Shown here: positions 1 to 57,345 of the stretch, piece by piece
Numbering within the stretch: position 1 is the first letter of the stretch
Layout: every line of letters starts with the position of its first letter
Assembly (NCBI GenBank): GCA_000002445.1
Contig: AL929603.2
Location: forward strand, 704,001-768,000
From: Trypanosoma brucei
Taxonomy: Eukaryota
Reading direction: 5' to 3'
DNA length: 64,000 nt
Position numbers and translations under genes: made by a program
The notes under the pieces: model-generated
The model's input: the letters and a program-made list of their open reading frames with translations, nothing else
Told to the model about the DNA's origin: nothing
Databases searched by the model: none

Positions 1-7
1 GGGATCG

Positions 8-19641: not shown

Positions 19642-19646
<5 letters not shown>

Positions 19647-24500: not shown

Positions 24501-24537
24501 CTTGCTCGACCATTTGATTACATACCCCAAGTCCTCA
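21506..24537. promoter_or_regulatory. Convergent strand-switch region (likely Pol II termination zone) between the plus-strand and minus-strand gene arrays
   Basis: The last plus-strand CDS ends at 21505 and the first credible minus-strand CDS ends at 24538. The interval has no convincing ORF and contains a GC-rich island (about 22.0-22.9 kb) with a C17 tract. In trypanosomatids such convergent junctions are termination sites. Confidence 0.6.
22851..22867. repeat. C17 homopolymer (G17 on the minus strand) inside the convergent strand-switch region
   Basis: Read directly from the sequence. Flanked by GC-rich non-coding sequence. Confidence 0.95.
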
Positions 24538-33756: not shown

Positions 33757-36132
33757 CTACCACAGCCGCACTCTTGTTTTCTTATGTAATTGTTCAGTAT
33801 CTTCATCATCACTCGCATCGGAGCCTTCATATTCCTCTCCATCAGTGCGAGATCCTCCATCAGACTCACCTGCATCAGTCGCACGATTTATAACCGCCCT
33901 GAAAAATGAAGCAAATGTGTTCATACAACCATTACGTTTGGGCTCCCGCTCACGCCGACGCCGCTTCTTACGATCACCACCACTGAAAGCGCTAGGATGA
34001 AATAATGAAGTTCGACTGTCAGCGTCATCATCATCATCATCATCAACATCATCAACATCATCGTCATTCTCATCGCGGCAAACGGCAGCATTTCCCTCCC
34101 CATTATTTGTTTCATTACTTGGACGCACCTTCCTTTTATTGGCTTCAACAACAACAGCTGCATCCGCCACAGTTCCATCTCGCACCGCAACTGCAGCACA
34201 TTCATCCTTCAATTGTACAACGAGAGCACCGTTGCCAAGTTCCTTCGGCGCATTAGCAGTTTGAATATCAGAAGATGATGGCAGTTTCTTATCACTGCAC
34301 ACGACTGCACTTCCCTCATTTCCGCTGGTCGGGACGCTGATGCAAATGTTTTCAACATGCTGCGGAGGCATCGAAACATTTTGGTTAGCCATAACACCCG
34401 TTACACCATTAGCAGCAACAAAAGTAGTAGTGGTAGGAGCTGTTGTTGCTGTTGTAGTGTCGTCACCAACACGAGTGCTATCATAACGTGTTAAAGGGAG
34501 AACTGTAGTCCCAATCATACGCATCACTGGAGATGGTGCAGCATTTACTTGAGGATATGTTGCACGACAGTCGGGAGCACCACCAGTTTGGCAACTTGAC
34601 CTTATGGATGACAGGCGGCATTCCGCAATTGAAGCTGCGGCCGTCGTTGCCGATGGGGTGGACACCGCCCAGCAACTCGACGCCCTGTCGTTTGCAGAAG
34701 CCGGCCCCTCCTGCTGTTGTTGATGTTGATGTGGTGATAATACCGTGCCGATATCGATGCCAGCAGACCAGGAACGGAGAGTTTCGTGAAGCTGGTCTGC
34801 AGAAGCCTGAACCTGAACAATGGCCTCCAGCCAACCCTTCACGGTGGATAATTCCGTGTCTATCTGTCGTCGCCTTGCTTCATATTCCTCCATCGTGGGA
34901 TCGTAACTGTCCATAGCAGCCAAACGCTCATCGAGGCGTCCCGCTTCCTCTACACGGTTGGAACCGAGGCGGGCGATACGAGTTCTCATATCGTTCAGTC
35001 GTTCCCGTGCGTCGTTACACAACCCTTGCAAAGCAACCAATGCTCGGTTTGCCGTTACATTTTCCTTTAGTCCACGCAATAAATCGCCACAACTGGCGCC
35101 CACAACCTCCTCCCACTGTTGCCGCAACCGAAGTCCACACACATGAACAGTAACCTGAAGGTCATCAACAGGATGCCCGCCAAGCGACAACTGCTCCCGT
35201 TGGGGTGGTACTACAAAAGGGAACCCGAGGGACTGGCCATTGTTATGAGAAGGAGATTTGGTCTGAATATCCCCCAGAGCAGCGCACACTTGATCTTGTT
35301 CCTCCCGAAGTTTCTTGAAGCTCTGAGCAAATGTTCCCACATGCGACAGAATTCCCTTGCATTCACTCAAATCAACGTCCACCCGCGAACGGCCTCGCTG
35401 CCCCTTGACTGAACCGACAGGACCATTTGGCACCATGTGCTGCAGCGGTTGCTGCGGAGATGTAAATAAAAAGCTGTCCGTTAAGGAAGCAGCTGATGTT
35501 GCCTGAAATGAAGCGGCAGCACATTCAATAGCCTTTTGAAGCTCATCCCAACGCCGAAGTATGGCCTCACCTTCTTCGAGCCGCTGTTTAACTTGCATCC
35601 GAGCCACTGCGTAACGCCCCAACGCAAATTCAATTATGGAAACGGCTTCCTTCTCCTCAGGCCGGATCGAGCGGTCAGACATAAATTTTTGCATTTCAGC
35701 CACACAACCTGGCAATGCGGGGTTGAAGTCGGCAGTAGGCGCCAACGTTGCCGAATTGTTGGATAAACGAGAAACGGAAACATCCTCCTTCGAGGCCTCT
35801 ACGTGACTGTTTACCACATTATTGGAAATGGCAACACTGTTGAGAGCGGAGGACGCGACATAACTACTGAAAATATCAAAAGGGTTGTTCGTGGCATTGC
35901 AACCGCTAGCAGCTGTCACCACCTGCACATCATTATTAACAGTTCCGGTTCCGCTGCATTGCGTGGATAAGCAGCCGGGTTGCGGTATGGTGGCGTTGGT
36001 GTTGGTGTTGGTGTTGGAATGGTTCAATGGTGTAAAGTGAGTTGACATGGTAGAAGAAACCGCATCACTTTTAACACCCGCTAAACCATTGGAATTCCGC
36101 GCTGTGACCTGCGATGGCAGGAAGGAGGCCAT
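33757..36132 (-). CDS. Hypothetical protein, 791 aa. Low-complexity Ser/Thr/Asn-rich N-terminal half, coiled-coil middle, and an acidic poly-Asp segment followed by a basic tail
   Basis: Long ORF with a polyY tract and AG immediately upstream on the minus strand. In-frame (CAT)n and (GGTGTT)n microsatellites encode poly-Asp and NTNT runs. No family recognised. Confidence 0.65.
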   Translation of the reverse strand: MASFLPSQVTARNSNGLAGVKSDAVSSTMSTHFTPLNHSNTNTNTNATIPQPGCLSTQCSGTGTVNNDVQVVTAASGCNATNNPFDIFSSYVASSALNSVAISNNVVNSHVEASKEDVSVSRLSNNSATLAPTADFNPALPGCVAEMQKFMSDRSIRPEEKEAVSIIEFALGRYAVARMQVKQRLEEGEAILRRWDELQKAIECAAASFQATSAASLTDSFLFTSPQQPLQHMVPNGPVGSVKGQRGRSRVDVDLSECKGILSHVGTFAQSFKKLREEQDQVCAALGDIQTKSPSHNNGQSLGFPFVVPPQREQLSLGGHPVDDLQVTVHVCGLRLRQQWEEVVGASCGDLLRGLKENVTANRALVALQGLCNDARERLNDMRTRIARLGSNRVEEAGRLDERLAAMDSYDPTMEEYEARRRQIDTELSTVKGWLEAIVQVQASADQLHETLRSWSAGIDIGTVLSPHQHQQQQEGPASANDRASSCWAVSTPSATTAAASIAECRLSSIRSSCQTGGAPDCRATYPQVNAAPSPVMRMIGTTVLPLTRYDSTRVGDDTTTATTAPTTTTFVAANGVTGVMANQNVSMPPQHVENICISVPTSGNEGSAVVCSDKKLPSSSDIQTANAPKELGNGALVVQLKDECAAVAVRDGTVADAAVVVEANKRKVRPSNETNNGEGNAAVCRDENDDDVDDVDDDDDDDADSRTSLFHPSAFSGGDRKKRRRREREPKRNGCMNTFASFFRAVINRATDAGESDGGSRTDGEEYEGSDASDDEDTEQLHKKTRVRLW

Positions 36133-38057
36133 TTTGGAAATGGAAACGTGTGTAATAAGGAGAGGGAAAAGATAACTAAAAGAATTAATAATAATAATAA
36201 TAATATATATATATATATATATATTTATTTATAGAAGAAGATGGGGGGAAGAAAGAAAAAAAGAGATGAATTGATTGCAGAGACTGAGTGGAAGGAACAC
36301 AAACGCAAATGCACATACTTGTTAGCGATGGGGGAGAAGAAAAAAAAAAGGTGCTAAAGCACCAGAGGAAAAGAAGAAGGAAAATTAAAAAAAAAAAAAT
36401 GAAACAACAAAACAGGGGAGATGTAAAATTTGACCAAGCAATAAAACAATCAAACAAAAAGAAGGAAAAAAAAGATACCTCAGGCAGAAAATGACTCAAA
36501 GGAGTGAACCAAACACATTTGTTATCATCATCCTCCTCTTCGTACATTTTTTTTTGCTTTGCTTTGCTTTTTTTTTTTTGCTTTGCTTTGCGCATGTTTG
36601 TGTGTCTTCTTATCCCTCAGTGCAGGAAGCGGCCAAACTCATCAGTTATCATTCACAAAAAAAAAAAAATGCGGTAATTTGTCCCGTCATTTTCGTTTAG
36701 TACTGTAAAGTAAAGGGACGCCTCACGATAATAAGAAAATGATGAAACTGTAGTTTTTGTTTCGTTATCTTTTTTTTTCTTTTCTTTTTTACCTTTGCCT
36801 CTTTTAAGTGAGGTAAAGGTAAAAAAGAAAAAAAAGAAAAAAGAAAAAAAATTAGTTCACGGGAAAACAACTTCACAACTGATATGCAAGCATGCAAAAG
36901 TAAGCAATAAATTGTAAGAGGCAGAAAAAAAAAAACAAAAAAAAACAAAAAAAAAAGAAAAAAAAGAAGTTTGAAAGGTATTCAAAACAAAACAAAACAA
37001 AAAAATTAAAAAGAATCAAAGCAACTTCACAAAGAAAAAAAAGAAAAAGAAAAAGAGGGTACACAGAAATGAATCAATGTCACAACGAGAGAAATAAATA
37101 AAAGAGGAGATATTTGCCACGCAGAATGGAGGGAGGTACACACTGAAGGGGAAAATGTAAATAAATATTATGAAAGTATTGAAACCGCTTGACGGAATAA
37201 ACAATGATAACAATAATAAAGGGAAATAAAAGGGAAATAAAAGGTGCCTCAAATTACCGTAATGATACCGAAGCAGAGGTGTACACGCCGCCATCAAACA
37301 AATGATGGCAACGTCAATTTAAAAAATATAAATATATACACAAAAAAAGATGTGAAAAAAAAAAATCACGGCGAAAGAGATCTCAGAAAAAATTAACAAA
37401 GGATGAAAAGGACATATGTGTGTGTGAGTGTGTGAGTGTGTGAGAGAGAGTCGCCTCATACAAAATGCTCCTTTTTTTTTTTGTTTTGTTTGAGCCATCA
37501 GCACCTTTCTTTTTTTTTTTTAATCCATCATTATTGTTAATAATCCTCATCTCAACATTTTCTCTTGTATTTTCTTTTTTTTTCTTTTCCACTTCATTTC
37601 ATCATCACGGCTCATCCCCATTTCAAACACCGTCATTTCAACCTTTCGTTTCCCTTTCAAACACATAAACACACGTAAGAAAAAAAGAAAGAAAAGAAAA
37701 ACAAAGCTCCAGAAGGGGGGAGGAAAAAAAAAAAGATGTATAAATTTAAATATAACCAAATATTCGTATAATTTTGTGTGTTTTTGTTTCTTTTTTTTTC
37801 TTTTAATTTTTCTCTTTTAGTGTTTGTTACTCCCGTAACCTCCATTCATTCATTCATTCATTCATGCAACATTCTCTCTTGTATTTTCTTTTATTTTCTC
37901 TCTTACATCATTTCTCTTGTCCGTATGTGACTTTGCGCGTGTGAGGTTTCTTTTTTTTTTTTTTTCCTCTCTCTCTCCACCTTCATTTGAACCTCCTCAA
38001 ACGCAAAAAAAAAAAAAGAAAAAAATGTGTGCTTGTATATATACGTTTAAACATACG

Positions 38058-38090
<33 letters not shown>

Positions 38091-38119
38091 ATATAATATT
38101 AATATAATATAATATATAT
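38058..38119. repeat. (TA)n microsatellite degenerating into (TATAA/TAATA)n
   Basis: Read directly from the sequence. Confidence 0.9.
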
Positions 38120-40879
38120 GTGTACGTATATATATATAAATATATGTCTGTGTGTGTTTGTATGTGTTTATGTAAAAGGCGTAATTCACTGGGCAGCAGT
38201 TCCTTCCAACAGAGTTGAAATAATTGTAATGACTGCATGACACTCAGCCATTTATTTATTTATTTATCTAAAATATTGACGGTTTCGATGCATCCGCAAC
38301 GACAGGCGGTTATGTGTGCTCTCTCATTTTCCTTTCAGTTCCTTCACACATTTGCGTCTTCATAAGTACATTTATACTCAATAGTCTCATTATTTCCAAC
38401 AATGATATAATAATAACAAATTTATGTTGTTAAGAATGATATCCAAAACATTTCTTTTTATCATTGTTATTATTTGCATATTTCTTTTTTTTTTTCATTC
38501 TAACCTGTTCATATCTTACAACTGCTCCGTGTAATCCTCTCCATTAAATATCGTCATTTTGTTTTTCTTTTTTTTTTTCTCTACCTTTTTTTTTCTTTTT
38601 TTTTCTTGAACTCTTTCCTCTTCAGCTTGAGTGGAAAAAAAAAAACACAAAAACACACACACACACACAAAACAAAAAAAAATTTGGAGGAAGCGGGAAC
38701 AGAGAAAGAAAGAAAGAAAAAAAACAATAATAATAACAATAACAATAACAACAGCAGGAGCGCGCGCCTTTGCTTCATTCCTTTCTCTCTTTTTTTTTTT
38801 CCGTTTCACTCATTCATTTTCTTTACTTTTCTTTTTCTTTTTCTTTTCAATAATCATAATCATAGCAGAAACGAAAAGGAAGTGAAATAACGTGAAGCAA
38901 AAAAAGAAAGTGAATACCATTGAGATACTGAAGTGTATAAGTAAAGTATATATAAATATAAATAATATATAAACCAAAATGCATGTATATTTATTTATAA
39001 TTTCATGTGGCCGCGGAAGCTCACCGGCGCGCATACTCTAAAAAGAAAAAAAAGAAGAAAAACATAAGAAGTATAATATTAATAATAATAATAATAGTAC
39101 GATATAATAAAATACCCTTTCAGTATCTGTCATCATTATTTGAAAAAAAAAACAAGAAAAGAAAAGAAAGGGGGGAAATTACGAAGTTTGTCGTTTTTTT
39201 TTCCCTTTTCGAAGGGGGGGGGGGTGTTGCTGGTTTACATTTCATTTTTTATTTTTTATTATTGTTATTTTTCCTCTACACCAAAAAAAAAAAAAGAAGG
39301 ACGATGGACAGCACAACGATGATATTTAAAAAAAAAAAGAACAATGATGGTACAATAATAACCGAACAAAACGAAATAAAACAAAAAAAAAGAAAAGAAA
39401 CAAATGAAGCGGAGGAAATTTCTCACCTCCCATAAAAACTTCTTTCAGTTGATATAAATAAATATTTAAATATTGCATAACGTTCATACGAGTATATAAA
39501 AATAATAATAATAATAACAGACAACAAAGAGCGTGCACCCAAAAGAAGGAGGGATTTAAAAAAAAAGAGAAAAAAAGAGAGAAAAAAAAACGTTCGTATA
39601 TAATTATTGGCGTTATAATATAAAACTATATAATTTCTTATTTGAAACAAAAAAAGAAAAACAATCAAGGATTTCATAGTTTACAAATATTTGTACGTGA
39701 ACAATAATACATTCGCGGACATGAACACAGATATTCATTGAAGAATAGAAGCAGGAAAAAAAAAAAAGAAGAGCGTACATGTAACAAATAAAAATAAAAA
39801 CAATTATTCATGAGCAAATGATACAAACAAACATGTACAGATACACACACGTATATATGCAAATGTACATGTCATTTTTTCTCTCTTCTGTGGGAGCTGC
39901 TTGAACGGAAATCTTGACAAAACAACAACAATAATAATAATAATAATAAAAGCAACAATAAGAAGGGGAAAAGGGAGGGGGAAAGAAAAAGAAAAGAAAA
40001 GAAATTTGATAGCGATTTGTAAATAATCGAATCAAATAAAATTGAACAAATATTTCATGCAAACATGCATATATAAATATATAAATATATGTGTGTGTAT
40101 TTGTCCCTTTTTTCTTTTTCTTTTCTCTGTTCTCCCTCTCATTTGCCCTCATAATTCATAGCAGCATCCGTGTCACCGAGTTTATCTGTGAAGAATAGTT
40201 ACCATATAATTAATATCACAATGATGATGGTAATAATAATAATAATAATGAGCGAATAATGAAAAACACAAAAAAACACAAAAAAACAAAAACAGACACA
40301 CAGTAGTAGTAGTAATAATAATAATAATAATAAAAGTGGCATATAAAGACGAGGAGGAGGGGGGCGGGGAGGAGACAATTTAACAAAAAGAAAAAAGAAA
40401 AAATCATTTAATTTTCATTTTTATTACACAATGCACTTGTCATCTCCCCTCATCTTTCTGTTACCGCCCCTATGATTATTATTATCATTATTATTATTAT
40501 TATTATTGCTAGTGCTGTTATCATCATAATCATGACCTTTCGCGGATATCACCGCGTGTCATTTCTGCCATTCATCCGATAAATCCCGTCGATGCCTTTT
40601 TTTTTTTGTTTTTTCCCTCTTTTTTTTTTTATTTCATTCTTTTTCCTCCCTCACTTATAAATAAATAAACAAGTAAATAATAAATGATTTCTCATAGTTT
40701 TCTTTTTACGGTTTCAGCTTCAGGAGTCATGGCAACAGCATTACGGCGGATGAAAGCAGGGGAGAGGAAAATCAAAATATTTCTCTTTTTTTTTTTTAAG
40801 AAAAAAAAAGAACAAGAAAATACAATCTTGTGAGTTTGAAAAGCCGTAAATATATATATATATATATTTATTTATTTAT

Positions 40880-40912
40880 AATATATTTATAATATATTTA
40901 TAATATATTTAT
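40880..40912. repeat. 11-bp tandem repeat (aatatatttat) x 3, following a (TA)n and (TTTA)n run
   Basis: Read directly from the sequence. Confidence 0.9.
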
Positions 40913-42337
40913 AATGGATAGAGGGAATTGACAATGCAACACAATAACAGCACAAAAAAAAGAAAACGAAAAAAAAAAAAGAAAAGACAAGACAAGACAA
41001 GTTGCCCCTCCCCCCTCCTCCAACAACAAAAAAAAAAGAAAAAACTCTTTGATTACCCGTCATCCTCTGTAAAGAGTCATTTAATTCTACTTTCACTTTT
41101 TTTTTCTTTTTTTCTTTTTTTTTTTTTTTAGCCTCTCATTTCCTCTCGTTTCATTTCATAATTTTGAAACAAAATATTCATCCTCTCTTTTCTTTTCTTT
41201 TCTTTTCTTTCTTTTTTTTCTTTTTTTTTTTTTGATACTCGACAAAGTGTAGAAATTCATCACATGCATCCAAAACACCACACGAAACGTATATCTCAAA
41301 AGAAAAAAAAAAAAGAAAAGACAAACACAAACACAAATTTATTCATCAACGCCATCATATTCATTCGCTATCCCAATCTCATCAATTCCCTTAACTTTTC
41401 CCACCAGTTCCCTTTTTTTTTCTTTTTTTTTCTTTTTTTTTCTTTTTTTTTCTTTTCTTTTCTCTTTTCATACGTGAGTACATTTCTTCTATTCGTACAT
41501 CCATCCTTATCTCCCCACAACGGCATACACCCCCGTTAAGATCTAATGCAAAAACAAAACAAAACGAAACAAAACACACACGAGAGGGAAAAAAAAAGAT
41601 AAAAAAAGATAAAAAAAAAAGAAAAAAAAAGATTCCCATTTCTGCTTTTTATCAAACCCCCACACACACACAAACACAAACACAAACAAACACACATGAA
41701 ATATACGAATTATATACATATATATATATATATATATATGTATTCGTACACTTGACATGCATATATTTACGATAATCACACACGTGCCAAATGCAAATGT
41801 GACAAATTTACATATAAATATTTATAAATAAATAAACAAAAATTAATAATGCACATAATACAAAGGTGGATACGACATGTGCGTGTGTGCTTGCACTTTT
41901 TTATTTATTTTTTTATTTTTTTCTCTCCCTCCTCCCTCCCCCCCCCCCGTGCGGGTAAAAAAAAAAATTATATTGTTCAATCGTATTCAAACCTTAACAC
42001 TTTGCTTTTCTTTTATCTCCTTCTCTCTTTCTTTCTTTCTTTTTTTTTTCGTTTTCCTTTACTCCTCGGTAAACTTTTTATTTTACATTCTTGTCATCGT
42101 TATATTACATTATATTACATTATATTTATTTATTGTTAGTTTTAAGTTATTTATTATAAGAGATGAACTTATTTCTTTCTTTTCTTTTCTTTTAAAATCT
42201 TTTTTCGAATTTCAGTTCTTTACGTTAGGAAATGGGAAACACCCACCTGCCCCAAAGTACGAAAACAAAAATAAAGAAAAAGAAAAAGAAAGAAAAGTAA
42301 AGAAGACAATGAAAAATAACGACAATAATATTATATT

Positions 42338-42391
42338 TATTTTTATTTTTATTTTTATTTTTATTTTTATTTTTATTTTTATTTTTATTTT
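42338..42391. repeat. (ATTTTT)9 hexanucleotide microsatellite
   Basis: Perfect period-6 repeat read directly from the sequence. Confidence 0.95.
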
Positions 42392-44488
42392 TACTATTGT
42401 TGTTAAAAAAGAAAAAAAAACGCTGCGCGTGGTGGAATTTCTACTGTGAAGTGAAAGAAACAAAAACACACACACAACAGCAGAGCTAAATTTCTTTTAT
42501 GAAATATATATATATTTATTTATTTATTTATTTATTTAAAAAAAAAAGCAATTCGCATCAGTGTCTTTGCGTACGTATACGCCACCGTAATGAAACTTCA
42601 TGGAACAAACAAACAAACACAAAAAACACAAAAAAGAAAAATGTGGAACTGCTTTTTTTTTTATCTATTCGTTTCTCTTTTCTTTTTAAAAAAAAAAATC
42701 CTTTTTCTTTTTTTAGGTTCTTTCAGTCTTCAATATTATTATTATTATTATTGTCTGTTGTGTTTTTTTTTTTTATGGACGTGTGAGTGGAAGAAGCAAC
42801 GGCAGCGAGTTCCATGACATAATGTCATTCAAACGATAATACAAAAACAAAACAAAAAACGAAAGGAAATGAAATGAAATGAATAGAAAACATTGGAATA
42901 GAAATGGACAGCAGCAATTTGTATATAAAATAAAAAAGATATGATATGCTTTGTCTCCTGTAAACCAACACAATAACAAATACAACAGACACAGTAACCA
43001 TACAATGATGGTACAAAAAAAAAAAAGAAAAAAGAAAAAAGAAAAAAGAAAGAGAATATAGTCAGAAACACGCATACAAGCATACATATATTTCACGTGT
43101 AAATATATAGAGGTATATATAAATATAAAAGTAAATATATATATATATATATATAATATATATATATATAAATAAATATATGCAAATATATATAAATATA
43201 TATATAGAGAGAGATTAGTGGTGCATTGATATAACGTTTCCCATCATGGTAACATCATATAAAGGCTCCACATAATCAAGTAGCAAAGTCTGTATGAAAG
43301 TGTCAGGGGGATTTGATAAAGCAAGGGAAAAGTACGGTGAAAGCCAAAACTGGGGGGGAAAAAGAAAGAGGGAGTAAGAGATCTTTTTTTTTGTGTTTTT
43401 TTTTTTTTTGAGAGCAGTAAAACACAAACAAAAACACACAAAAAAACAAAAACAAGAACAAAAACAAAAGGGTGGAAAAACAAATATTTTTCGTTTTCTT
43501 TACTTTCCTTTTTTTTTTCTTTTTCAAATGAAAAGACATCATCAGTTCCCCTTGAGTACTTTTAATGTCCTTCATTTATTCTCCATTTATTCATCATGCA
43601 GGTGCCTATTACCCGCTGTTGTTTTTTTTTTTCACTTCTTCCCCTTTTTGTTGTTGTTATTTGTTTGTTTGTTTGTTTTTCTCTCATTTATCTCATGCAT
43701 ATTAACTAATTCAAACACCACTAAACCATTCTCACTAATTCATCCATCCACAAAAAAAAAAAAAAAATTACTCATTTACTAAATCACTATAATCATTTCC
43801 ATTCACTCAATTCATTCACGCACTAAACCATTTTACACAACAGTTCAACAACATAATTCATTCACGTACTCTTTTTGGCTAAGCCCCTTTTTCTCTAGCC
43901 TTATACCCACATTTCCTTTTCTTTTTTTTTCTTTGCAAAACAAAAACAAAACAAACACGCACAAACACGCACAAACAAACATATAAATAAATACAAAACA
44001 AAATAAAACAAAATAAAATAGATAAAAAGTAACCTTCTTCTCTTCTCTTTTCTTATTTTCTTTTTTTTTCTTTTTTTTTTTTTGTTTCAATCGCCAATGT
44101 GTGGGGAACAATTTCTTCTACTTTACCTCAGAGAGGTAGACACAAATAAATAAATAAAACAAAAGGGCGGAGGCACTTCTCGTGTGTTCATTTAATGCCG
44201 TCTTTTTTTTTTTTGGTTTTTCATACGTGTTTGTTCGTTTGCGTATTTGTGCGTTTTATTTTGTTTTCACCTACTTATTTATTTATTTGTTTATTTATTT
44301 ATGCGTTTTCCTTTCTTTGATTTTACACACACTCTGGTGTTGACAACCAAGTCAAAAGTATGAGAAATTCTCTTTGCTTTGTTTCCCTCTTCCTTCTTCC
44401 TTCAAGAAAATAATAATAATTAATAATAATAATAATAAACCATACGCAAGAAACGTACCAAAATTTATTATTTTCTCTTTCTTTTCTC

Positions 44489-44519
<31 letters not shown>

Positions 44520-45077
44520 GAAGGAAGGAAGGAAGGAAGAGCCGATGAGGAAACAAAAAACAAAAAACAAAAACAAAAACAAAACTAAAACTAAAACTCG
44601 AAAAAGTGGGAAAAGTGGCAAAACAAAAACAGGAAGGGAAAGGGAAACTTGCATGCCATTCATTGACGACGACTCTATCATCATAGGACTGATATGTTGT
44701 CACTACTATCGGATTTTCTCTTCATTTCTCTTGTATTTTCTTCAATTTTGTTTGAAATTCTCCTTTTTCTCACCACCAGTTTTGATCCAAATAATCCAAC
44801 CTACTCATAACGATGACAACAACAATATAAATAATAACAATAATACGTTCTTCCTCTTCTCCGGTTGTTTAGTTGACAGTTTCACCTTTGCTTGTTTCTT
44901 CATTTTTTTTTTTCTTCTTCTTCATTTTTCTTTCTTTTTTTTTTCTTTTTCTCAACATCCAATTGATTTCTCTCATCATTCTCACGTCTACGAAAAAAAA
45001 AAAAATCACTACCAACACAATCAAAACAATCAAAACAAAAAAAAAGGGGGAAAAAACAACCATAACAACAGATAAAA

Positions 45078-45112
45078 GGGAATTAAAAAGGGAATTAAAA
45101 AGGAATTAAAAA
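45078..45112. repeat. 12-bp tandem repeat (gggaattaaaaa) x about 3
   Basis: Read directly: gggaattaaaaa gggaattaaaaa ggaattaaaaa. Confidence 0.9.
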
Positions 45113-46865
45113 GGGAAAAGTAAGTGGAGGGAAAAGAAATGAGAGGAAACGCCACTACAATACAAATCTCTTCTTTTATATACAAATATATTATTATTAT
45201 TATTATTGTTATTATTATCATCATTGTTGCTATTTTTTTTTTTCCTCTCTCACATTCTCTTTTGCCTTTTTCCTACACGTAATGTCATGCTACGCCATTA
45301 AAACACTGCTAAAATGGAGATATGAATTGTCATTTCCCATTATTCCAATTTTTCTTTTCTTTCTTTTTTCTTTAAAAATAATAATAATAATAAAAACAAT
45401 TTTTCTTCTTCTTTACCACTCTTCTCATACAGTACAAAGCAATAGTATGCAACGATGATAATAACAATAACAAGATGCTAATAACAATACTAACAGTAAG
45501 ATAATAATAACAAAAATAATAATAATAATAAGATGCTAATAATAATAACCGTGACGGAACGTGATGCGGTACGACATGACATGACGAAGAGGCAAGTGAG
45601 AAGAAAAAAAAAAGAAGGAAAAAAAAGGGAAAAAAAGAAAAGAAAAGAAAAATGTCATTTCACTTTCTTTTTATCTTTTTTTTTCCTTTTTTTTTTTCTC
45701 TTCCTGTTTCCTTCTTGTTTTTCTTTCTTTCTTCTGATCTTCTCCCCTCTCCCATCCGCCCCTCACACAAAAACACAAACATATGCGTATAACCTTCTCT
45801 CCATTCTTCCTCTTTTTTTTTCTTTTTTTTTCCCCCTTTTGTTTCACTACTCATCCTCTTTCCCATTTATATATATATTTTTAGATATATATTATCCCTT
45901 TTTTCTTCGCCTTTTTATTTTTTTTTTCCTTTCCATCATCATTTGGTTGAAGCGGTACCTCTCATTTACACACATTTTCTTTCACTTTTCTATATTTGTG
46001 TAGTTATTATTATCATAGTAAACAACAATAATAATAATAACAATAATAATAACAATAAATTGGGAAACAAAACAAAAAACACACACACATTTCCCATCAT
46101 CCATCTCTCTCAACTCAAATTTCATCTTTCATTGTTGTCTTCGTTGTTTCCCCTCCCCCCCTCCCTTTTTTTTTGTTTTGTTTTGTTTTCTTTTCTTTTC
46201 ATCGCTCTTTTAAATATAAAACACATATATAACAAAAAAAAAAAGGTAAGATAAAAAAAAAAAAATCAAATTGCTTCCCTTTACAGTGGTGTGTAAAATC
46301 CGCTAAACTTTTTTTTTCTCAATAACACGACGCACATACAAAAGAAGAAAGAAATGAAAAAAAGAAAAAAAAGAAAAAACAGGGCAAACAAACGAACCAT
46401 TTTTCTTTCTGACCTTGTTTGCGCCTTCGTTTGTTTGTTTTTGCTCATCTCATTTCCTTTCATCTCATTTCTTTTTTTTTTTCATTTCTTTCTTCTTTTA
46501 CTATTATTATTTTTTTTTTCTTTCTCCACCTTTCCTTGGTTTCTTTTCCTATATATTTCTTTTTCTTTTTCCATTTTCCTTCTTTCATGAGCACACACAC
46601 ATTCACACATACATATGCACACTATTATATTACTGCTTCCGCTCCATTAGCAAACTCAAAAAACAAAAAAAACAAAAAAAGACAGTATAAAAACACTTCG
46701 CATACACCCATTCAAACAAATTACTCCCTTTTTTTCTTTTTTTTTCCTTTTTTTCTTTTTTTGTTTTCTTTTCCTTTTTTTTTTTGTTGTTGTTGTTATG
46801 GTGGAGGTTGTGGTTGTTGTGGTTTTCATTTTATTTTTATTTGTTTTCTTTATATATATATATAT

Positions 46866-46896
<31 letters not shown>

Positions 46897-49800
46897 AAAA
46901 ATCACCCATTCATATGAACAAACATATATTTTATATAAAATATATATATATATATATATTCATTCATTCATTCATTTGTGTATATATTTATAAATTATTC
47001 CCTTCTGCCTCTCAACTTAATCTTCTTTACAACTTTCACATTCACATGGAAGTAAATGTTAAGTGGAAAAAAAAAAGTCATATAAGGCTTTTTTTTGTTT
47101 TTTTTCCTCTTTTCCTTTTTTCAGCCTCTTTTCTCTCCCAAAAAAAAAAAAAAAACAAAGGGAATAAATAAATAAATATAAAGAATGGGATTTTTTTTTC
47201 GTTTTTCGTTTTTTTTTAAAAAAAAAAAACAAGTAACAAGGAGTGAAGAGGAAAAACAAAACAAAAAACCCACACAAAAACACAAACACACAAACACACC
47301 GACAAAAAGGAAAAAAAAAGAAAAAAAATTGAAAAAAAGAAAAAGAAAAAGGGAAATAATAATAATAATCATCATCATCATAATCATAATGATAATAATA
47401 AAATTGCAGAATATGGGATGTACGAAAAATATATTTGAAATGTAAATGTTAAATGAGTTTGATAATGTAGCTGCAAATCACTTAGTCCTCTATGTTGTAG
47501 TTCCGTCGCATCTCCTGTAGAGCCGCCGCCACTGCAGCCCGCCTTGCGCACATAAAACCAGGCATCTGACGACGCTGAGCATATAATTGCATGGCGGCTG
47601 TAAATGGAGCTGGAGGTTCCATCATTCGACCTGCTGGTGTTAAACGAGCGGAGGCACGCAATGATCCATTTGGCATCATCTTCAATTTATTTACAAAATA
47701 AAGAAAGAAAAATATAAAAATATATAACTATAATAAAAAAAAAAATGATAATAATAATAATGATAAACGCTGAGGAAGGTAAATAAGTGAATAAATGTAT
47801 ATAAACTAATGTGGCAAAAGAGAAAAAGAGAGAAAAAAGTCCGAAAACGAAACTAAACGAACCAAAATAATAATGATAATGCTAATAATAATTTTTTTAA
47901 AAAAAAATTGAAGATTGAATGCACAAATGGACGAGAAACTAACAAACGGGGTAACTGTGTTTGCCTGCGAACCAGTACTGTATGCAAAAGTATATCGCGC
48001 AAACGAGAAATCGCAAAGAAAAGGGTGGAAAATTCGGGAAGAACTTTTGAATTTAAACCTAATGGTACCAAAAAAAGAAAAAAGAAAGAGGAAAAAAAAG
48101 AAGGAAAAAGGAGATGGGTAGAAACATGAAAAGAAAGTGTTCAAACACATATTCATTCAAAGCACAGAGGATTCAATAGTGTTACATTCAAGTTTCATGA
48201 TTTCAACAGCAACAAAAAAAATGAAAAAAAAAGGTCACAAAAAGAATAGATTAAGCGCCACATAATGGAAAGGAGCATAATGATAACAATAATCATAAAC
48301 ATGCCGTACTTAAAACGGAGAAATGGTGGGAAAATGCAAATATAATATGATATAAATATATTTCATAAGTTCATATATGGTTCCATGCCTCTCCAACAGT
48401 CAACGTTCCATTCAATATTCCCACTTGCATGCACTTCCGTAATTTTTTTTTTGACTTTTCTAGGCAACCCAACAGCGACGGCGGTGAGGTCATATTCTAT
48501 TTATTTATTTATTTTTTTGTCCGCTCTCTCTTTTTTTTTTTCTAGAAACAAAAAAGAAAGAAAAGTCCTGCAACGTGTACGCTAAGATATGAACCTTATT
48601 ACTTTCCTCATGCCTTCTGTCTAAGGCAATAAAACATGCAAATGCATATGTACTCACTACATAACTAATAATATTATTTAAATTGATTCCAACATTTCAT
48701 GTGGCTTAAGGTACGACACAAACAACTAAAGAAAAAAGAAAAAAATAAAGGGAAAAGTCGCAATTACAAATACACCAAGTGAAAAAAAAAAGAGGGGAAA
48801 ACATAAATATATAAACATATTCGAACAACCACCGGAGTGTTACCTCTTCAATACAAGCGTATATAAAAAAAAATATGCACACATAAACACACGCACACCA
48901 CACACATATATATAAATATATATAAATATATATATATTTTTTTTTGTTTGTTTGTTTCTTTCTTTCTTTTTGTTATTCCCGTTTCTTCACATCTCACCGC
49001 ACGCACGCGTGTGGCCCCATTAAAGTAAAATAAGATAAATAAATAAATAATGAACATGAACATGAACATTTTAGGAAAAATAAAAGGAAGGAGAACAAAG
49101 CTTAGCAAAAAAAGAAAGAAAAAAACACATAACGGAAAATAATAAATGCTTGTGTATACTTCTCATTTCGTTACTGTCAACGTGTGGGTTAATCAAGGAA
49201 GAGGGGAAAGGAAAAGGGAAAATTATAAATATATAAAATGAAAGAAAGAAAAAAGAAAAGAAAAGAAAAAAGCCCACTCAAACCAGATGGAGAAAAATTA
49301 ATGGAGAGGCATTAGCTGCTGTCATCATTAATATATTATTATTATTATTATCATCATTATTATTATTATTGTTATTACTATTGCTTTCGGGATTGTCTTG
49401 TTATTGTTGTTATTGTTGTTAAGGGTATATGCAATGCGTAAGCATTAGCCATTCATAAGGAAGGGGCCGAATGGGAGGGGAATATATTAATAAACAAATA
49501 AAGAGGAATTTTGTTAACCCAAAATTCCTTCAACACCACTCTCAATGCACAGCGCTGAAGGAAATAAGTAAAATAATCAAAAAACAAAAAGATAAATAGA
49601 CGGAAAGGAGGGAAAGGAGGGAAAGGTAAGAAGGTCAAGACGGGTGCGTCGTATACAAATTTTAAAATTGTAAAAAAAAATTAAAAAAAGGGAAAAGGGA
49701 AAAGGGAAAAGGAAACTCATTGAATAAGTGAAAGAAGTTATAAAATTATTGCAAGGTAAGGATAGAAAAGAGAAAGGGGGGTTTAACAAATGTATATATA

Positions 49801-50538
49801 AAATAACGGGGGAAAGGGAAGAAGAAGAAATTGTTAAAGTATGAAAAGAGAAGAATAAGAATATCAATGAGTGCGAGTTACTTCTTCCACTGCTTCGCAA
49901 TCATCATGCATACGAATACACGAGCAAACGCAACGTTAATAAACATTGTAGCGACTGTAATGAATTTTTGCAATGGTAGTGGTAATAATAGCGTGATACC
50001 AAAAGGTACATTCACTATTTATTTGTTACCCCCTTTTTTATCACTTTCTTTCTCTCATGTTCAGTTACAGCCACAACGGCGATATTCGCTTCAGTGCAGC
50101 AAGCACATTTTACCAAGGGAGCACACGACCGCGTATAAAAGTGGAAAAAAAAACAAAAAAAATGGAGGAGAAAAAACAGAAAGGAAAGAAGGAAAGGGAG
50201 AAGGAGCAGTTGCGTATTGGTTTCCACACAAATCCCCTCCGCAGTGTATTCGAGTGAACTTATAAAAAAATGAAAGAGGAACGAGTGGAGCCCCGCCCTT
50301 TACGCGTCATTTCTCCATCCACTTGTGTTTGTTGGTTGTTTGTTGGACCTCTCACCACACATTTTTTTTCTTCTCGTTATTTTTTTTTTTCCCCACATAC
50401 TACATCTTCTTTTTTCTCTTTTTTAATCCCATTTACATGCACAATCAACCACACATACACATACACACACACATGCATATACATATATAAATATATATGA
50501 ATATATGGATATATGGATAAATAGATATATAGATATAT

Positions 50539-50576
50539 AGATATATCCATATATCTATATATCTATTTATATATAC
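50539..50576. repeat. Perfect 18-bp inverted repeat (atagatatatagatatat / cc / atatatctatatatctat) embedded in an (ATAGATAT)n-like tract
   Basis: The left arm at 50539-50556 is the exact reverse complement of the right arm at 50559-50576, with a 2-nt spacer. Confidence 0.9.
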
Positions 50577-52776
50577 ATGTATGTTAACATACGTGATGCT
50601 GGCGAAACAGCAGTGGGGAAAAAAGAAGAAAAGAGAAACTGGAACCGTGGCGATATCTTCACCCGTATTCCGCGCCACCTTCAATAACAGGGGAGCTTCT
50701 ACAAACACTCTCTGCATGGTGTAATGCAAAATCATTTTATTACTACATTTTCATTATTCCCTTCTTTTCCTTTGTTGTTGTTATTAATATTTCTCCCCCT
50801 TCCTTTCCCCTCTACACCTTTTTTTTTTTATAATCATTCCATTCCATTACATTCCCTTCCTCCCGCTTCTCCTCCTTGCAATTGCAATATGAATGCGTAT
50901 AAACGTAGAAATACGGGGACAAATGAATTATAATATAGTATAAGTAAATACATGGCAACGCAGCCTCAAACAATTACGGTTCCACCTTGCCGCAACTATT
51001 TGAAATCCCCTCCCCTTCCTCAGCTTTTGGATTTCCCTCCTCTCCATTCTTTTTTTTTTCATTTTTCAGTGTGGCAGCAAAAGAGGACGGAACGAATTGA
51101 GGGAAGCAAATTGTTCATAGCACACACGAAAAGAAAAAGAAAATGAGTGCAATGAAAGTCAACTTCCGAAACGCACAGACGCACACACGCATATATATAT
51201 ATATATACTGATATATGGATATATACCAAGGGAGTGATATGCAAACAAAAGGAACGGTGGCAAAAAAAAAAAAACGGAAGAAAGAACGATCAAATGTTGA
51301 TGACGCGAAAGACTCACCGCTTCATATCAATCAATTCGCTGAAGCACACACGCCGTGCAGTCCATCATGTTTCTGTCCACACGCAATCATCAGGGATATT
51401 ATCAAGTTAGCCTCCCTCCATGCACACCGTCCTCCAGTCCACAGCAACCACACAAGCACAGAATATATATTTATTTGCGTACACATACACACATACGTTT
51501 GCGCGCACACTTGTATACGAGTAAATGTGAAAGTTCTCAACTCCTTGCAAACATATACGTGTAAATGTATAAACATGCATGCATGAACATATATGAATGG
51601 AAATTTAAAGAAATACCGCAAGTTGTCGCCGTGGATCGTGCATAACCCCTCTTGCGCCAAAAGTCACCGAAACCCCGCATTATCTTCGCGCTGTGCCCAC
51701 GGCAGGCGGTTAGCAAATCAAAAAAAAAAGGGAAAAGCCAATTATTATCATTTATTTATTCCGTCGGAGGAAACAACGAAAAGGAAGGAAAATCAAAAGA
51801 AACTGCGGATAATACCGATTGCTTTGCCCGTTACTGGTGGTTTAATTGTGGTCATAAGGCACCAAATACGGAAGGAGCCGCAGCGCCCTTGATTTCGAAA
51901 AAAAAAAATTAACGACATGGGAAGGGAGAAGAGGAAAAAAGAGAAAAAAAAGAATCGCACACGCACTCCGTTTCCTTCCTTGCCGCCCCTCTTGCAATGA
52001 ATTTGTTCTTATTTCACCTTTTTTGTTTGTTTGTTTGTTTCCCTTACCCCTCTTGCGGGTTTCTGCAGTTTCTCTCACTTCTCTCCGATGCCTTTCATTA
52101 ACCCCATCATCGTTTGAATGTGGCTCTAAAGCTCAGGCATTAATACGCATGGAAACAACATCTCCTCCTCTCCCGATCCTTCCATCAAGCAGGCGAAACA
52201 GAAAAGGTGTGCAAGTTATATGCAACTGTTCTGCTTTCAGCGCGAGGAAAAGGAAAGGAAAAGGTAGAAACAACGGCGATAAAACATAAACAAGAACAAG
52301 AGCGACTCTCTCCTGTTGGTGCACGAATAGTCGGAGGCGGAACGAAACCTCTCTGAGAGGGAAAAAAAAAACAAAGAGGAAGGTGGGAAAAGCGAACGTG
52401 GAATAATCGATAGATTCACGCGCAAACACGAAGTTCTTGGATCCGCCGTTTCCGCAACACCAGCAAGTCATAATGGGTGTGGTAACGTTGGCCACTGAAG
52501 GAAATAAAGGAAGGAAAGCAAGCCCAACCGGCAGATGCTGGTTGGTTAAAGTTGCAAATAACGGATACCCAAATAGCAATGAGAGCAATAGTATGGCAAG
52601 AAACAAACGCACGGCTCTGGAAAATGCAAACTCGTTAGAAGAACGCTCTTAACTAGCAAAAAGAAAAGAAAACTGTCTATTTAGCTGGTATCGTATTCAC
52701 TGTATCGTGCAATGCATTGAAGAAACATGAAACAGCCAACACAAAGCGCGTGTAAATGGTGAAAGCGACAGGATAA

Positions 52777-53868
52777 CTAACAATGCGCGTCAAGCCCACG
52801 TCTTCCGCTTGTCTGCGACACACGCTCCAAGTGTTCGCTGTACTTTTTCAAAATAAGCGACAAGGCGTCACTGTGTGCACGGCGGCGCAGAACTTCATAT
52901 GACGTACCATCAAACTTGCGGCACCGCAGCGCCTTTGATTCCATATTACTCAGTGGGATGGGCTCCATGAAGGACCTGTTGGACGAAACGGGTGTTGTGC
53001 ACTCGGAGAAATGCAAACAACGCGCAGACGGTTCCGTACTTGGGGTTATGTCAACAGTTACCTCACACTGAGTAACAGATTCATTATCTCCATACTTCAC
53101 ATTCTCAGGCCCAAGTGCCGTCTCGGGTCGGCAACCCGCTTCCATTACTGCGCAGCTGCCAGCATTGGTCCCGTTGGCGACGTCGTCCACTAAATGCTGT
53201 TGGTTGTCTCCTTCGTAAATAATTGTTTCCACATCCATTTTAGGCGCAGCTTCCCTTAACCAAATCTCTTTCCTTGACAGTTTTGCAATGGGCAAGATAA
53301 TCGGGCAAGCTGCGTGATTGCGTGGCTCTGACGGAAGGGAAATTGAAATAAGGTCATGGCAATCTCCACCGCAGCCCCAATTAAAGGGGCCGTTGGACAG
53401 CTGACAAACCAAGTCATCTAAAATGCACATACAGGATTTACCACGGCTTTCACGGGTCAGTAACGTCACAAGTAGAATACTGGCACCCGCCGTGGATGAA
53501 CTACAGAGTGGCAGCGCTGCACAATCAACCCATCCAAACAAATTTTCCCGGTTCGTGGTTGACAGCGCAACTGAGGTGTAACTGACTTGGGACTTTATTC
53601 CCTCGGTATTCGAATGTCGAGCCTGAAACCCATTAAGCTGCCCCACTGAGTCAGAAGTTGAAGCCAATAAATCACCGATATTTGACTTTTGAAAAATCAA
53701 AGGCAATTCAACGTTCTCGAAACTGGACAGTTCGTAAACTGGCGTTAACCCTGGGGCGTTACACGGAAAGCTTCCCCAACGGGGAATACAATTCTCTAGT
53801 GCACACATCTCGCCAGCTCCGCTGTGACAAAAGTTTTGTAGTTTTTTACTCTGAAAACCAACACCCAT
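52777..53868 (-). CDS. Hypothetical protein, 363 aa, moderately Cys-rich
   Basis: Non-repetitive ORF on the same strand as neighbouring minus-strand genes. A polyY tract lies about 100 nt upstream on the minus strand. No family recognised. Confidence 0.5.
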   Translation of the reverse strand: MGVGFQSKKLQNFCHSGAGEMCALENCIPRWGSFPCNAPGLTPVYELSSFENVELPLIFQKSNIGDLLASTSDSVGQLNGFQARHSNTEGIKSQVSYTSVALSTTNRENLFGWVDCAALPLCSSSTAGASILLVTLLTRESRGKSCMCILDDLVCQLSNGPFNWGCGGDCHDLISISLPSEPRNHAACPIILPIAKLSRKEIWLREAAPKMDVETIIYEGDNQQHLVDDVANGTNAGSCAVMEAGCRPETALGPENVKYGDNESVTQCEVTVDITPSTEPSARCLHFSECTTPVSSNRSFMEPIPLSNMESKALRCRKFDGTSYEVLRRRAHSDALSLILKKYSEHLERVSQTSGRRGLDAHC

Positions 53869-57284: not shown

Positions 57285-57345
57285 AGCTTCAAAAAAAAAA
57301 TTTCGACTATGAGTCGACCTTTCTAATGGAAAGAAAGAGAGTAAT
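57285..57345 (-). promoter_or_regulatory. Polypyrimidine tract plus AG: candidate trans-splice acceptor for the CEP164-like gene
   Basis: The minus strand reads ctatattactctctttctttccattAGaaagg about 50 nt upstream of the ATG at 57284. Confidence 0.4.

Follow-up and report, generated by a model that had tools for sequence, protein, structure and literature searches.

The locus described here raises the question of what a 16.6-kb block of seemingly gene-free, low-complexity DNA represents when it lies inside a gene array that is transcribed in one direction. The block was encountered in a 64,000-nucleotide stretch of DNA that was analysed as a whole (the window) and that belongs to chromosome 1 of Trypanosoma brucei TREU927. 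Within this window it is part of the first gene array running out from the mapped chromosome 1 centromere. [quoted passage not shown] Below we describe the composition, conservation and synteny of the block, and weigh what these imply for its origin.

Results

Setting and composition of the block

The predicted coordinates and flanks are exact (Table 1) and, with both flanking genes on the minus strand, the block is indeed not a strand-switch region. The identification of the downstream neighbour CAJ16556 as Tb927.1.3450 is inferred from accession spacing and a published flank listing; orthologs of this gene are present in T. congolense, T. cruzi and Porcisia. Pfam searches of the flanking and syntenic proteins returned a WW domain only. 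The observation that the block far exceeds the other spacers of the window was borne out as well, the other intra-array spacers measuring 0.4-1.8 kb.

Table 1. Features of the block and its flanks (positions in the window)
Feature	Position	Strand	Remarks
Whole AT-rich, low-complexity block	36133..52776	.	16,644 bp, Tb927.1.3450 to Tb927.1.3550
Sub-block, most AT-rich and repeat-dense, without conserved ORF	36133..47481	.	11.35 kb, 28.4% GC, 9.6 A/T runs per kb
Sub-block from the small ORF up to Tb927.1.3550, of milder composition	47680..52776	.	5.1 kb, 36% GC, 4.3 A/T runs per kb
Tb927.1.3450, 791 aa, downstream flank	33757..36132	-	Exact match to CAJ16556
Tb927.1.3550, 363 aa, upstream flank	52777..53868	-	CAJ16566
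Tb927.1.3560, CEP164-like WW-domain protein	54687..57284	-	First conserved gene out of the centromeric strand-switch region
Conserved 65-aa small ORF, CAJ16558	47482..47679	-	Deposited as 'hypothetical protein, unlikely'; 53% GC
359-bp run enclosing the small ORF	47386..47744	.	No difference among TREU927, IVM-t1 and DAL972
427-bp run invariant within Trypanozoon	52042..52468	-	Directly downstream of Tb927.1.3550
(T9C)4 repeat	41413..41452	+	TRF; originally given as T8C
(ATTTTT)9 microsatellite	42339..42392	+	TRF; exactly as originally named
(GAAAAAA)3, exact copies	43027-43047
(ATGAAC)3	49050-49067

The GC content of the block is 31%, as compared to about 50% for the coding DNA and 32-36% for the other intra-array spacers of the window. 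Tandem Repeats Finder (TRF) recovered 143 merged repeat loci that together cover 33% of the block; this share falls to 1% upon shuffling and is 21% in the ordinary intra-array spacers of the window. The low complexity noted before is real and far above chance. Runs of at least 8 A or T number 131, i.e. 7.9 per kb, where all other non-coding DNA of the window has 2.3 per kb, coding DNA 0.16 per kb and one set of four intra-array spacers 5.4 per kb. The poly(dA:dT) tracts do flip strand as described, with 50 switches or one per ~333 bp on average. The repeats that had been named individually were recovered, with minor deviations: (ATTTTT)9 and (ATGAAC)3 exist, the T8C unit is in fact T9C and the supposed (GAAAAAA)4 has three exact copies. 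Taken together, the composition of the block departs from that of the ordinary intra-array spacers of the window only in degree.

The absence of a periodicity near 147 bp was corroborated by an autocorrelation without peaks at 147, 177 or 294 bp, the signal within the block being confined to lags of at most 44. A search of the block for long direct or inverted repeats and for dispersed repeats yielded low complexity only, and a period-3 (codon) signal is absent from it. GC skew is positive at 36-40 and 48-51 kb and strongly negative at 40-47 kb; the overall plus-strand bias (A>T, C>G) equals that of the window's other minus-strand spacers. The idea that the 40-47 kb segment is inverted and of plus-strand sense was dropped, as its C>G bias fits the minus-strand polarity of the array.

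Variation among strains

The block is collinear in IVM-t1, DAL972 and OVI, and the suggested gross collapse or expansion between strains was not seen, its length being 16,644 bp in TREU927 versus 16,655 bp in IVM-t1. At a finer scale the variation is considerable. In comparison to the sister strains, indels, all of them small, take up ~6% of the alignment columns (~1,000), and substitutions amount to 1.2-4.2%, where coding DNA has 0.6-1.0% and other spacers have 1.2-2%; the most AT-rich sub-block likewise shows 1.2-4.2% substitutions and many indels. The block thus evolves at or above the intergenic rate and, outside the small ORF described below, without sequence constraint. The fact that TREU927 and IVM-t1 differ by a net 11 bp despite some 1,000 indel columns could hint at a constraint on size. 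The invariant 427-bp run is not conserved in T. congolense and is probably part of the 3' UTR of Tb927.1.3550.

A conserved small ORF

The claim that the block has no credible ORF holds for the long low-complexity ORFs, which are spurious, every one of them being interrupted in the sister strains by stops or frameshifts, but it fails for one ORF of 65 codons (CAJ16558). The encoded protein is identical in four Trypanozoon genomes, and the ORF shows zero nucleotide substitutions relative to IVM-t1 and DAL972, the two strains that were aligned. For the 359-bp run around it some 11 substitutions would be expected at the 3.2% rate of the flanks and 0 are seen (P ~1e-5). T. congolense possesses a collinear ORF of 63 aa in which 32 of the 63 residues are identical, and the accompanying difference between pS (0.86) and pN (0.31) shows coding-type conservation.

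The best match of the small ORF is the C-terminus of T. cruzi Tc_386 (residues 355-381 of 386), with a pairwise z of 5.8 for the T. brucei and 6.4 for the T. congolense version, and a score that is reached in 0 out of 300 shuffles. A profile of the motif family made from seven other members had no match to the small ORF at E <=10, and the C-terminal-motif profile detected no further copies in the block. A phmmer search against 1.8 billion representatives returned the ORF itself and alanine-rich multi-stretch matches that we regard as compositional. In T. brucei, T. congolense and T. cruzi alike, the small ORF or its counterpart is located between the CEP164-like gene and the Tb927.1.3450 ortholog, with equal gene order and orientation across the interval. 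The small ORF is likely to be orthologous to, or a remnant of, the C-terminal portion of T. cruzi TcG_07552, and CAJ16558 merits re-instatement as a candidate protein-coding gene.

In nearly all of the block conserved coding potential is absent; the small ORF, the exception, may lie in an annotated transcript. Pfam searches with the block's ten ORF pieces of highest complexity (nine from 47680..52776 and one at 47387-47686) gave no hit above threshold, one sub-threshold match (E 0.08) and no reverse-transcriptase or endonuclease domain. A tRNA scan and Rfam at gathering thresholds found nothing in the whole window, and Rfam at E <=1 reported for the block only sub-threshold hairpins on both strands, which arise because A and T runs adjoin.

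The syntenic interval in other trypanosomatids

The syntenic interval spans 9.1 kb in T. congolense, where it includes the same small ORF and has 45% GC and 1.8 A/T runs per kb. In T. cruzi it spans ~14 kb and contains three more genes (metacyclin II, TcG_07552 and TcG_07550); the distance between the WW gene and the 3450-like gene is 16.2 kb, with four called genes (359, 274, 386 and 473 aa), and three of these four have the C-terminal motif of Tb927.1.3550 in common. In Porcisia, for which part of the interval was recovered, a spacer of 4.3 kb lies directly upstream of the 3450-like gene. When the block was compared by blastn and tblastx with the syntenic spacers of T. congolense, T. vivax and T. 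cruzi, all matches except the small ORF were of low complexity, and the block yielded no remnant of either metacyclin II or TcG_07550. The T. cruzi ortholog of Tb927.1.3560 abuts GC-rich DNA with endonuclease and reverse-transcriptase fragments.

Tb927.1.3550 is labelled T. brucei-specific, yet syntenic homologs of its C-terminal motif occur in other species. This motif of the Metacyclin-II-like family (R..A(H)..AL..h...Y/F) ends the protein, and by its presence Tb927.1.3550 can be assigned, together with T. cruzi metacyclin II, to a small family of syntenic genes. On that assignment the gene is not T. brucei-specific and the label in the annotation falls.

Discussion

Origin of the block

We consider it somewhat probable that the block is an exceptionally long spacer, decayed, expanded, transcribed and in essence non-coding, within one RNA polymerase II polycistronic unit, holding the remains of a gene cluster. 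The polycistron would leave the chromosome 1 centromeric strand-switch region, proceed via Tb927.1.3560, Tb927.1.3550, the block and Tb927.1.3450 to Tb927.1.3390, and end at the convergent strand-switch region that follows. The block would then be the residue of an ancestrally gene-sparse and fast-evolving interval beside the centromere, in which T. cruzi would have retained metacyclin II, TcG_07552 and TcG_07550 and the African trypanosome lineage would have lost or reduced them, with the 65-codon ORF, from the C-terminal end of a TcG_07552-like gene, as the sole recognisable leftover. In T. brucei the vacated DNA may have drifted and, through replication slippage, expanded into the poly(dA:dT) and microsatellite sequence that typifies the intergenic DNA of this species. 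The polymerase would read through the block, and the precursor would be turned into low-abundance non-coding transcripts, among them KS17gene_4370a, and probably also into the small ORF mRNA. The anatomy of the block, the comparisons among strains and species, the missing sequence constraint, the small ORF and the lack of an annotated head-to-tail boundary are shown directly, whereas we infer that the polymerase reads through, that the block originated by gene loss and that it grew by slippage; the comparison that points to gene loss is the one with T. cruzi only, and gene gain in T. cruzi would be the alternative.

Competing explanations

Several observations might make one suspect an assembly artefact, i.e. 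AT-rich low-complexity DNA assembles poorly, the T. equiperdum OVI contig ends within the block and DAL972 carries a 101-N gap there. Because the block is collinear and equal-sized in other Trypanozoon assemblies, an artefact is hardly credible; TREU927 and IVM-t1 agree in order as well as size, and the IVM-t1 loci that were retrieved are without N. The same verdict applies to a second centromere-like satellite. The block was rightly judged not to be a satellite of the centromeric type: an array of one AT-rich unit of ~30 or ~147 bp extending over kilobases is absent from it according to TRF and autocorrelation, the longest array among the 309 TRF rows listed is ~105 bp, and its setting is not that of a centromeric repeat domain, located between directional gene clusters with ingi/DIRE flanks. 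The published chromosome 1 array, on which topoisomerase-II cleavage and the KKT2/3 peaks sit, was mapped between Tb927.1.3670 and Tb927.1.3750, beyond the window. Head-to-tail boundaries are recognised by Bdf3, H4K10ac and H2A.Z at the start region and by base J and H3.V where transcription ends. An internal head-to-tail boundary, at which polymerase coming from Tb927.1.3560 and Tb927.1.3550 ends in the block and a new start drives Tb927.1.3450-3390, would be in line with the unusual size of the block, its heterogeneous GC skew and the opposite responses of the flanking genes in DRBD18 RNAi. However, Tb927.1.2730, Tb927.1.2750, Tb927.1.3310 and Tb927.1.3860 share one pair of Bdf3-defined head-to-tail sites, and for all four genes the distances to the flanking sites sum to 807,612 (Schulz et al. 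2016, Table S6). As genes on either side of the block have these sites in common, no head-to-tail site is annotated within it, or anywhere between Tb927.1.3310 and Tb927.1.3860, in a table that represents bloodstream-form Lister 427 and in a type of DNA that maps poorly. In addition, the tRNA scan and Rfam revealed neither a tRNA gene nor a small RNA gene of the type that frequently accompanies such boundaries, and the overall strand composition is that of the minus-strand spacers. We consider such a boundary quite improbable.

The suggestion of an lncRNA locus gains substance from the annotated KS17gene_4370a, which is listed with Tb927.1.3550 and Tb927.1.3450 as protein-coding neighbours, was seen by RNA-seq (logCPM 2.4) and increases by 1.7 log2 upon DRBD3 RNAi. 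Upon DRBD18 RNAi, Tb927.1.3550 goes up (+1.03), Tb927.1.3450 goes down (-1.00), and KS17gene_4371a, the next in numbering, is the top transcript (+2.9). The DRBD18 shifts fit read-through with regulated processing, and fit a regulatory role for the spacer equally well. Even so, it seems unlikely that the block is a regulatory lncRNA locus whose transcripts, or whose DRBD3/DRBD18-dependent processing, control the neighbouring genes: KS17gene_4370a is scarce, KS17gene_4371a may lie elsewhere, neither sequence nor structure is conserved outside the small ORF, and the KS17gene 'lncRNA' may be the small-ORF mRNA or a by-product of processing. A nanopore lncRNA list, loosely placed relative to the window, has no novel chromosome 1 lncRNA beyond 648.5 kb. 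Given the poly(dA:dT) density, a nucleosome-depleted hinge would be plausible, and the block could be a functional pericentromeric element, either a group of replication initiation sites or an insulator that excludes nucleosomes and separates the centromeric domain from the housekeeping genes. T. brucei origins identified by stranded SNS-seq are defined by enriched short nascent strands, RNA:DNA hybrids and a low nucleosome occupancy, and lie in intergenic DNA with poly(dA) on the upstream side of their centre and poly(dT) on the downstream side; this polarity occurs in the block at 25 junctions (an A run of at least 8 to a T run of at least 8). Moreover, centromere-proximal DNA replicates earliest, the net length is stable among strains, T. 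congolense has a long spacer at the same place and T. cruzi an AT-rich flank beside its centromere. Nevertheless, the polarity is permissive (it also occurs in 9% of random intergenic controls), the junction count follows from run density, ordinary spacers carry the same features, the composition is not conserved, as the T. congolense spacer illustrates, and neither is any sequence, which leaves a functional element as a doubtful explanation. A combination of these ideas, rather improbable as it stands, would be a pericentromeric module in which a conserved and expressed 65-aa microprotein gene, set aside by annotators as 'unlikely' and perhaps now labelled lncRNA, is coupled to an 11-kb poly(dA:dT) nucleosome-free initiation zone or insulator; the tract would feed the replication peak of chromosome 1 that fires early and is associated with the centromere, or gate RNA polymerase II to Tb927.1.3450-3390 via DRBD18/DRBD3-dependent processing.

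The block is a modest curiosity and not a new kind of element, and views on trypanosome genome organisation stand. If it is a decayed spacer within one polycistronic unit, it exemplifies how non-coding DNA of great length is tolerated inside a trypanosome polycistron, and how pericentromeric genes decay. It would also be a natural test bed for the question whether RNA polymerase II passes 16 kb of T-tract-rich DNA without loss of downstream expression.

Comparison with known systems

Ordinary T. brucei intra-polycistron spacers resemble the block in being AT-rich, in their poly(dA:dT), (TA)n, (CA)n and oligopyrimidine repeats, in evolving fast with many indels and, when on the minus strand, in having an equal strand bias; the block is about ten times longer and somewhat more extreme in GC and repeat coverage. 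The T. brucei centromeric arrays, with units of ~30 bp on chromosomes 1, 2, 6 and 7 and ~147 bp on others (Obado et al. 2007), are AT-rich and repetitive too, and the block shares chromosome 1 with one of them, at no more than some tens of kb from the mapped centromere. Unlike these arrays it has no single-unit array and no higher-order periodicity, is not at a strand switch, and the ten ORF pieces searched were devoid of retroelement fragments in Pfam. The intergenic lncRNA loci of Guegan et al. 2022 (e.g. grumpy), a set that includes KS17gene_4370a, occupy spacers of ordinary size, whereas here the transcript or transcripts make up a small part of 16.6 kb and a conserved peptide of 65 aa may be the product of one candidate. 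The pericentromeric cluster with metacyclin II (Met-II) on T. cruzi chromosome 3 is syntenic to the block interval and, like the block, is AT-rich relative to its own genome, with long spacers; the C-terminal motif of Tb927.1.3550 recurs in its proteins, and one C-terminus matches the small ORF. Four called genes persist there in T. cruzi, as compared to a single full-length gene plus the 65-aa ORF in T. brucei.

The interval and its flanking genes

Exact look-ups of eight ORF products place the window within the 1,064,672-bp record of Trypanosoma brucei brucei TREU927 chromosome 1. Both neighbours of the AT-rich block at 36133-52776 were identified in the same manner, as was the WW-domain protein gene next beyond Tb927.1.3550, the product of which is named Tb927.1.3560, a CEP164 paralog, in the literature. 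In a 2025 supplement table (PMC12592628), the protein-coding genes to either side of one lncRNA are Tb927.1.3550 and Tb927.1.3450, from which the left flank is taken to be Tb927.1.3450; the current annotation thus holds no protein-coding gene between the two.

Coordinates of features in the window and in the syntenic loci of related species
Feature	Position	Strand	Remark
Convergent strand-switch region	21506-27722		6.2 kb, 46% GC
Left flank of block, CAJ16556	33757-36132	-	exact look-up
Long hairpins	36770-36841, 41686-41766, 45555-45746, 50501-50578		within block
Small ORF CAJ16558	47482-47679	-	65 codons, deposited as 'hypothetical protein, unlikely'
Invariant run	52042-52468		427 bp, just downstream of Tb927.1.3550; no difference among TREU927, IVM-t1 and DAL972
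112-codon ORF	52133-52471		intact in all strains
Right flank of block, CAJ16566 (Tb927.1.3550)	52777-53868	-	exact look-up; C-terminal motif
WW-domain protein gene	54687-57284	-	exact look-up
Region upstream of WW gene	57285-64000
Small ORF counterpart, T. congolense (L007)	14160-14351		63 codons
Motif gene, T. congolense (L007)	8279-8977
Motif genes, T. vivax (L008)	13288-14304, 17532-18188
Motif genes, T. cruzi (L010)	13892-14971, 17875-18699
Motif gene, T. cruzi (L011)	1177-2337

Composition and repeats

The block measures 16,644 bp and has a GC content of 31% (28% in its left 11.35 kb, 36% in its right 5.1 kb), against ~50% for coding DNA; the remaining intra-array spacers in the window span 0.4-1.8 kb at 32-36% GC. 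Tandem Repeats Finder returned 309 rows for 35000-54000; merged, those in the block amount to 143 loci that take up 33% of its length, as compared to 1% of shuffled sequence and 21% of the window's ordinary spacers. Runs of eight or more A or T number 131 (i.e. 7.9 per kb, versus 5.4 in a set of four intra-array spacers elsewhere in the window, 2.3 in all of its other non-coding DNA and 0.16 in coding DNA), and their strand flips 50 times at a mean spacing of 333 bp. All repeats named in the original prediction were recovered, with unit or copy number slightly off, and the absence of a ~147-bp periodicity it had noted was borne out: base autocorrelation and Fourier spectra carry short-range signal only (lags up to 44), without a peak at 147, 177 or 294 bp. 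A repeat search of the block found no long direct or inverted repeats, and codon periodicity was not found in it (values of 2-5, versus 15-31 in the two long flanking genes).

The convergent strand-switch region is opposite to the block in composition, with 1.4 Tandem Repeats Finder loci per kb and almost no microsatellites. Within the block, long hairpins arise from adjoining T/A runs or from palindromes rich in TA, and the sub-threshold miRNA-like Rfam matches that these score on both strands were rejected as RNA genes, being compositional.

Conservation between strains

The block is real and no assembly artefact. It is collinear in three further Trypanozoon assemblies, namely T. b. equiperdum IVM-t1, where 16,655 bp separate the Tb927.1.3550 stop from the Tb927.1.3450 start and the fetched loci are free of N, T. 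b. gambiense DAL972 (15,770 bp, in which a gap of 101 N stands in for ~1.1 kb) and T. equiperdum OVI, the contig of which terminates within the block. A three-way alignment yielded substitution levels of 1.2-4.2% per kb bin, as compared to 0.6-1.0% in coding DNA and ~1.2-2% in neighbouring spacers, and ~1,000 indel columns, for a net length change of 11 bp. The block's rate of evolution thus equals or exceeds that of other non-coding DNA, microsatellite length variation is abundant in it, and the gross collapse or expansion between strains that had been suggested does not occur within Trypanozoon (16,644 versus 16,655 bp).

Counted against TREU927, substitutions and indel columns per kb are similar in IVM-t1 and DAL972 and peak at 38-47 kb. 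The comparison of 38000-47000 with four Trypanozoon loci (L001, L003, L004 and L005) suggests that TREU927 bears a divergent haplotype of the block.

Coding content and a conserved small ORF

The deposited TREU927 annotation already lists ORFs in the block as "hypothetical protein, unlikely", six of which were matched by look-up (CAJ16557, 16558, 16559, 16563, 16564 and 16565). The longest stop-free stretch, a low-complexity one of 243 codons, exceeds those in all 100 local shuffles; stops or frameshifts break it in IVM-t1 and/or DAL972, and the same holds for the ORFs of 190, 157, 156, 136, 123 and 116 codons. Pfam gave no above-threshold match for the ten highest-complexity ORF pieces of the block. 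The earlier statement that the interval holds no credible ORF therefore stands for the long low-complexity ORFs, which are broken in sister strains, but fails for the conserved 65-codon ORF CAJ16558.

The protein sequence of CAJ16558 is the same in four of four Trypanozoon genomes, and its nucleotides show zero substitutions relative to IVM-t1 and DAL972, the two strains included in the alignment. It is enclosed by a difference-free run of 359 bp, for which ~11 differences would be expected (P ~1e-5) from the 3.2% divergence of the adjoining 2 kb. Its GC content is 53%, and oligopyrimidine tracts and AG dinucleotides lie ahead of it. When the block was compared with the syntenic T. congolense spacer, this ORF was the sole substantial tblastx match: the counterpart is collinear, with start and stop in register, and 32 of 63 residues are identical without internal gaps. 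Synonymous differences stand at a proportion of 0.86 and non-synonymous ones at 0.31. As far as sequence comparison goes, the differences are distributed as in a translated sequence that purifying selection maintains, and the ORF may be a genuine microprotein gene, possibly lying beneath an lncRNA annotation.

The 112-codon ORF lies inside the 427-bp invariant run. Because this run adjoins Tb927.1.3550 and neither run nor ORF has a T. congolense counterpart, the ORF is more likely 3' UTR, and the run is probably a constrained segment of the 3' UTR of Tb927.1.3550.

The syntenic interval in other species

The T. congolense spacer, spanned by two overlapping contigs, extends for ~9.1 kb from the stop of the Tb927.1.3550-like gene to the start of the Tb927.1.3450-like gene, has 45% GC and few repeats, and shows no credible gene apart from the small ORF. 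In T. vivax, the WW gene comes first past a divergent strand switch and is followed by genes for proteins of 338 and 219 aa and then by at least 4.4 kb without a Tb927.1.3450 ortholog. Two overlapping T. cruzi loci show the WW gene adjoining a GC-rich region (50-59%) that contains fragments of endonuclease and reverse transcriptase and is of the known centromeric strand-switch domain type; past the WW gene lie 16.2 kb of 32-42% GC with four called genes (359, 274, 386 and 473 aa), after which stands the Tb927.1.3450 ortholog. The 274-aa gene carries the GenBank name metacyclin II, and TcC31.8 is one member of the cluster. Locus L010 thereby shows an abrupt step in composition at the chromosome 3 centromere, with 50-59% GC in 1-9000 and, for at least 13 kb, 32-42% in 9000-22808. 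In Porcisia (Leishmaniinae), a spacer of 4.3 kb lies directly upstream of the Tb927.1.3450-like gene.

A short C-terminal motif (~R..AH..AL..V...Y) is common to Tb927.1.3550, a 232-aa T. congolense protein, the 338- and 219-aa T. vivax proteins and the 359-, 274- and 386-aa T. cruzi proteins, so that the "T. brucei spp.-specific" tag of Tb927.1.3550 is mistaken. Judged from their sequences, the motif genes form a small, fast-evolving tandem family adjoining the centromere that includes T. cruzi metacyclin II. For both small ORFs, the best alignment is with the C-terminal 27 residues of the 386-aa protein of T. cruzi (z of 5.8 for T. brucei and 6.4 for T. congolense; none of 300 shuffles reach the score). 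As a motif profile built without the small ORFs failed to recover them, their membership of the family is likely rather than proven.

Centromere, transcription and alternative functions

On chromosome 1, an AT-rich array of ~30-bp units lies between Tb927.1.3670 and 3750, topoisomerase-II cleavage is limited to an 85-120-kb region at that array, and the centromere region is syntenic with that of T. cruzi chromosome 3 (Obado et al. 2007); KKT2/3 enrichment on T. brucei chromosome 1 maps to this AT-rich array (Akiyoshi and Gull). The lncRNA KS17gene_4365a is flanked by Tb927.1.3670 and Tb927.1.3560 (supplement of PMC12592628), so the WW gene is the first protein-coding gene out of the centromeric region, 57285-64000 is likewise devoid of annotated protein genes, and the block starts two genes in. 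Since GC skew switches sign near 61 kb, 57285-64000 is probably the approach to a divergent start region and the centromere. Tb927.1.3310 and 3860 are ~100 kb apart according to the distances in Table S6 of Schulz et al., and we infer that the array lies 11-65 kb past the right edge of the block.

The leading idea of the original prediction, an internal head-to-tail boundary, finds no annotated site here. [quoted passage not shown] These distances, from one strain and one life stage, count indirectly against a boundary. The suggestion of an lncRNA locus fares better, at least one annotated lncRNA arising from the interval (KS17gene_4370a, logCPM 2.4, +1.7 log2 on DRBD3 RNAi; PMC12592628 supplement). 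Upon DRBD18 RNAi (same supplement), the top up-regulated transcript is KS17gene_4371a (+2.9 log2), with Tb927.1.3550 at +1.03 and Tb927.1.3450 at -1.00, which would fit a single precursor with processing choices traded against the downstream gene, if KS17gene_4371a lies in the block. A nucleosome-excluding insulator is a minority possibility, and so, on our analysis, would be a replication origin: stranded nascent-strand mapping defines T. brucei origins as intergenic sites that have poly(dA) on their upstream side and poly(dT) on their downstream side, the block holds 25 such junctions, and centromere-proximal DNA replicates earliest, yet the junction feature is permissive as a criterion and the block's composition is not shared by the T. 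congolense spacer.

On the best explanation, the block would be an intergenic spacer of the first polycistron by the chromosome 1 centromere that has decayed, has expanded through slippage and is transcribed by read-through, which would yield low-level non-coding transcripts. In the simplest history, an ancestral centromere-adjacent, gene-sparse interval would have held a small tandem family and one other gene, most of these would have been lost or truncated in African trypanosomes, and the leftover DNA would later have lengthened in T. brucei and become far more AT-rich and repetitive. The original observation is sound, save for one missed conserved small ORF, and the most useful by-products are this candidate 65-aa gene and the syntenic family that ties Tb927.1.3550 to T. 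cruzi metacyclin II. The block itself is no new type of element, but an extreme case within a familiar class.
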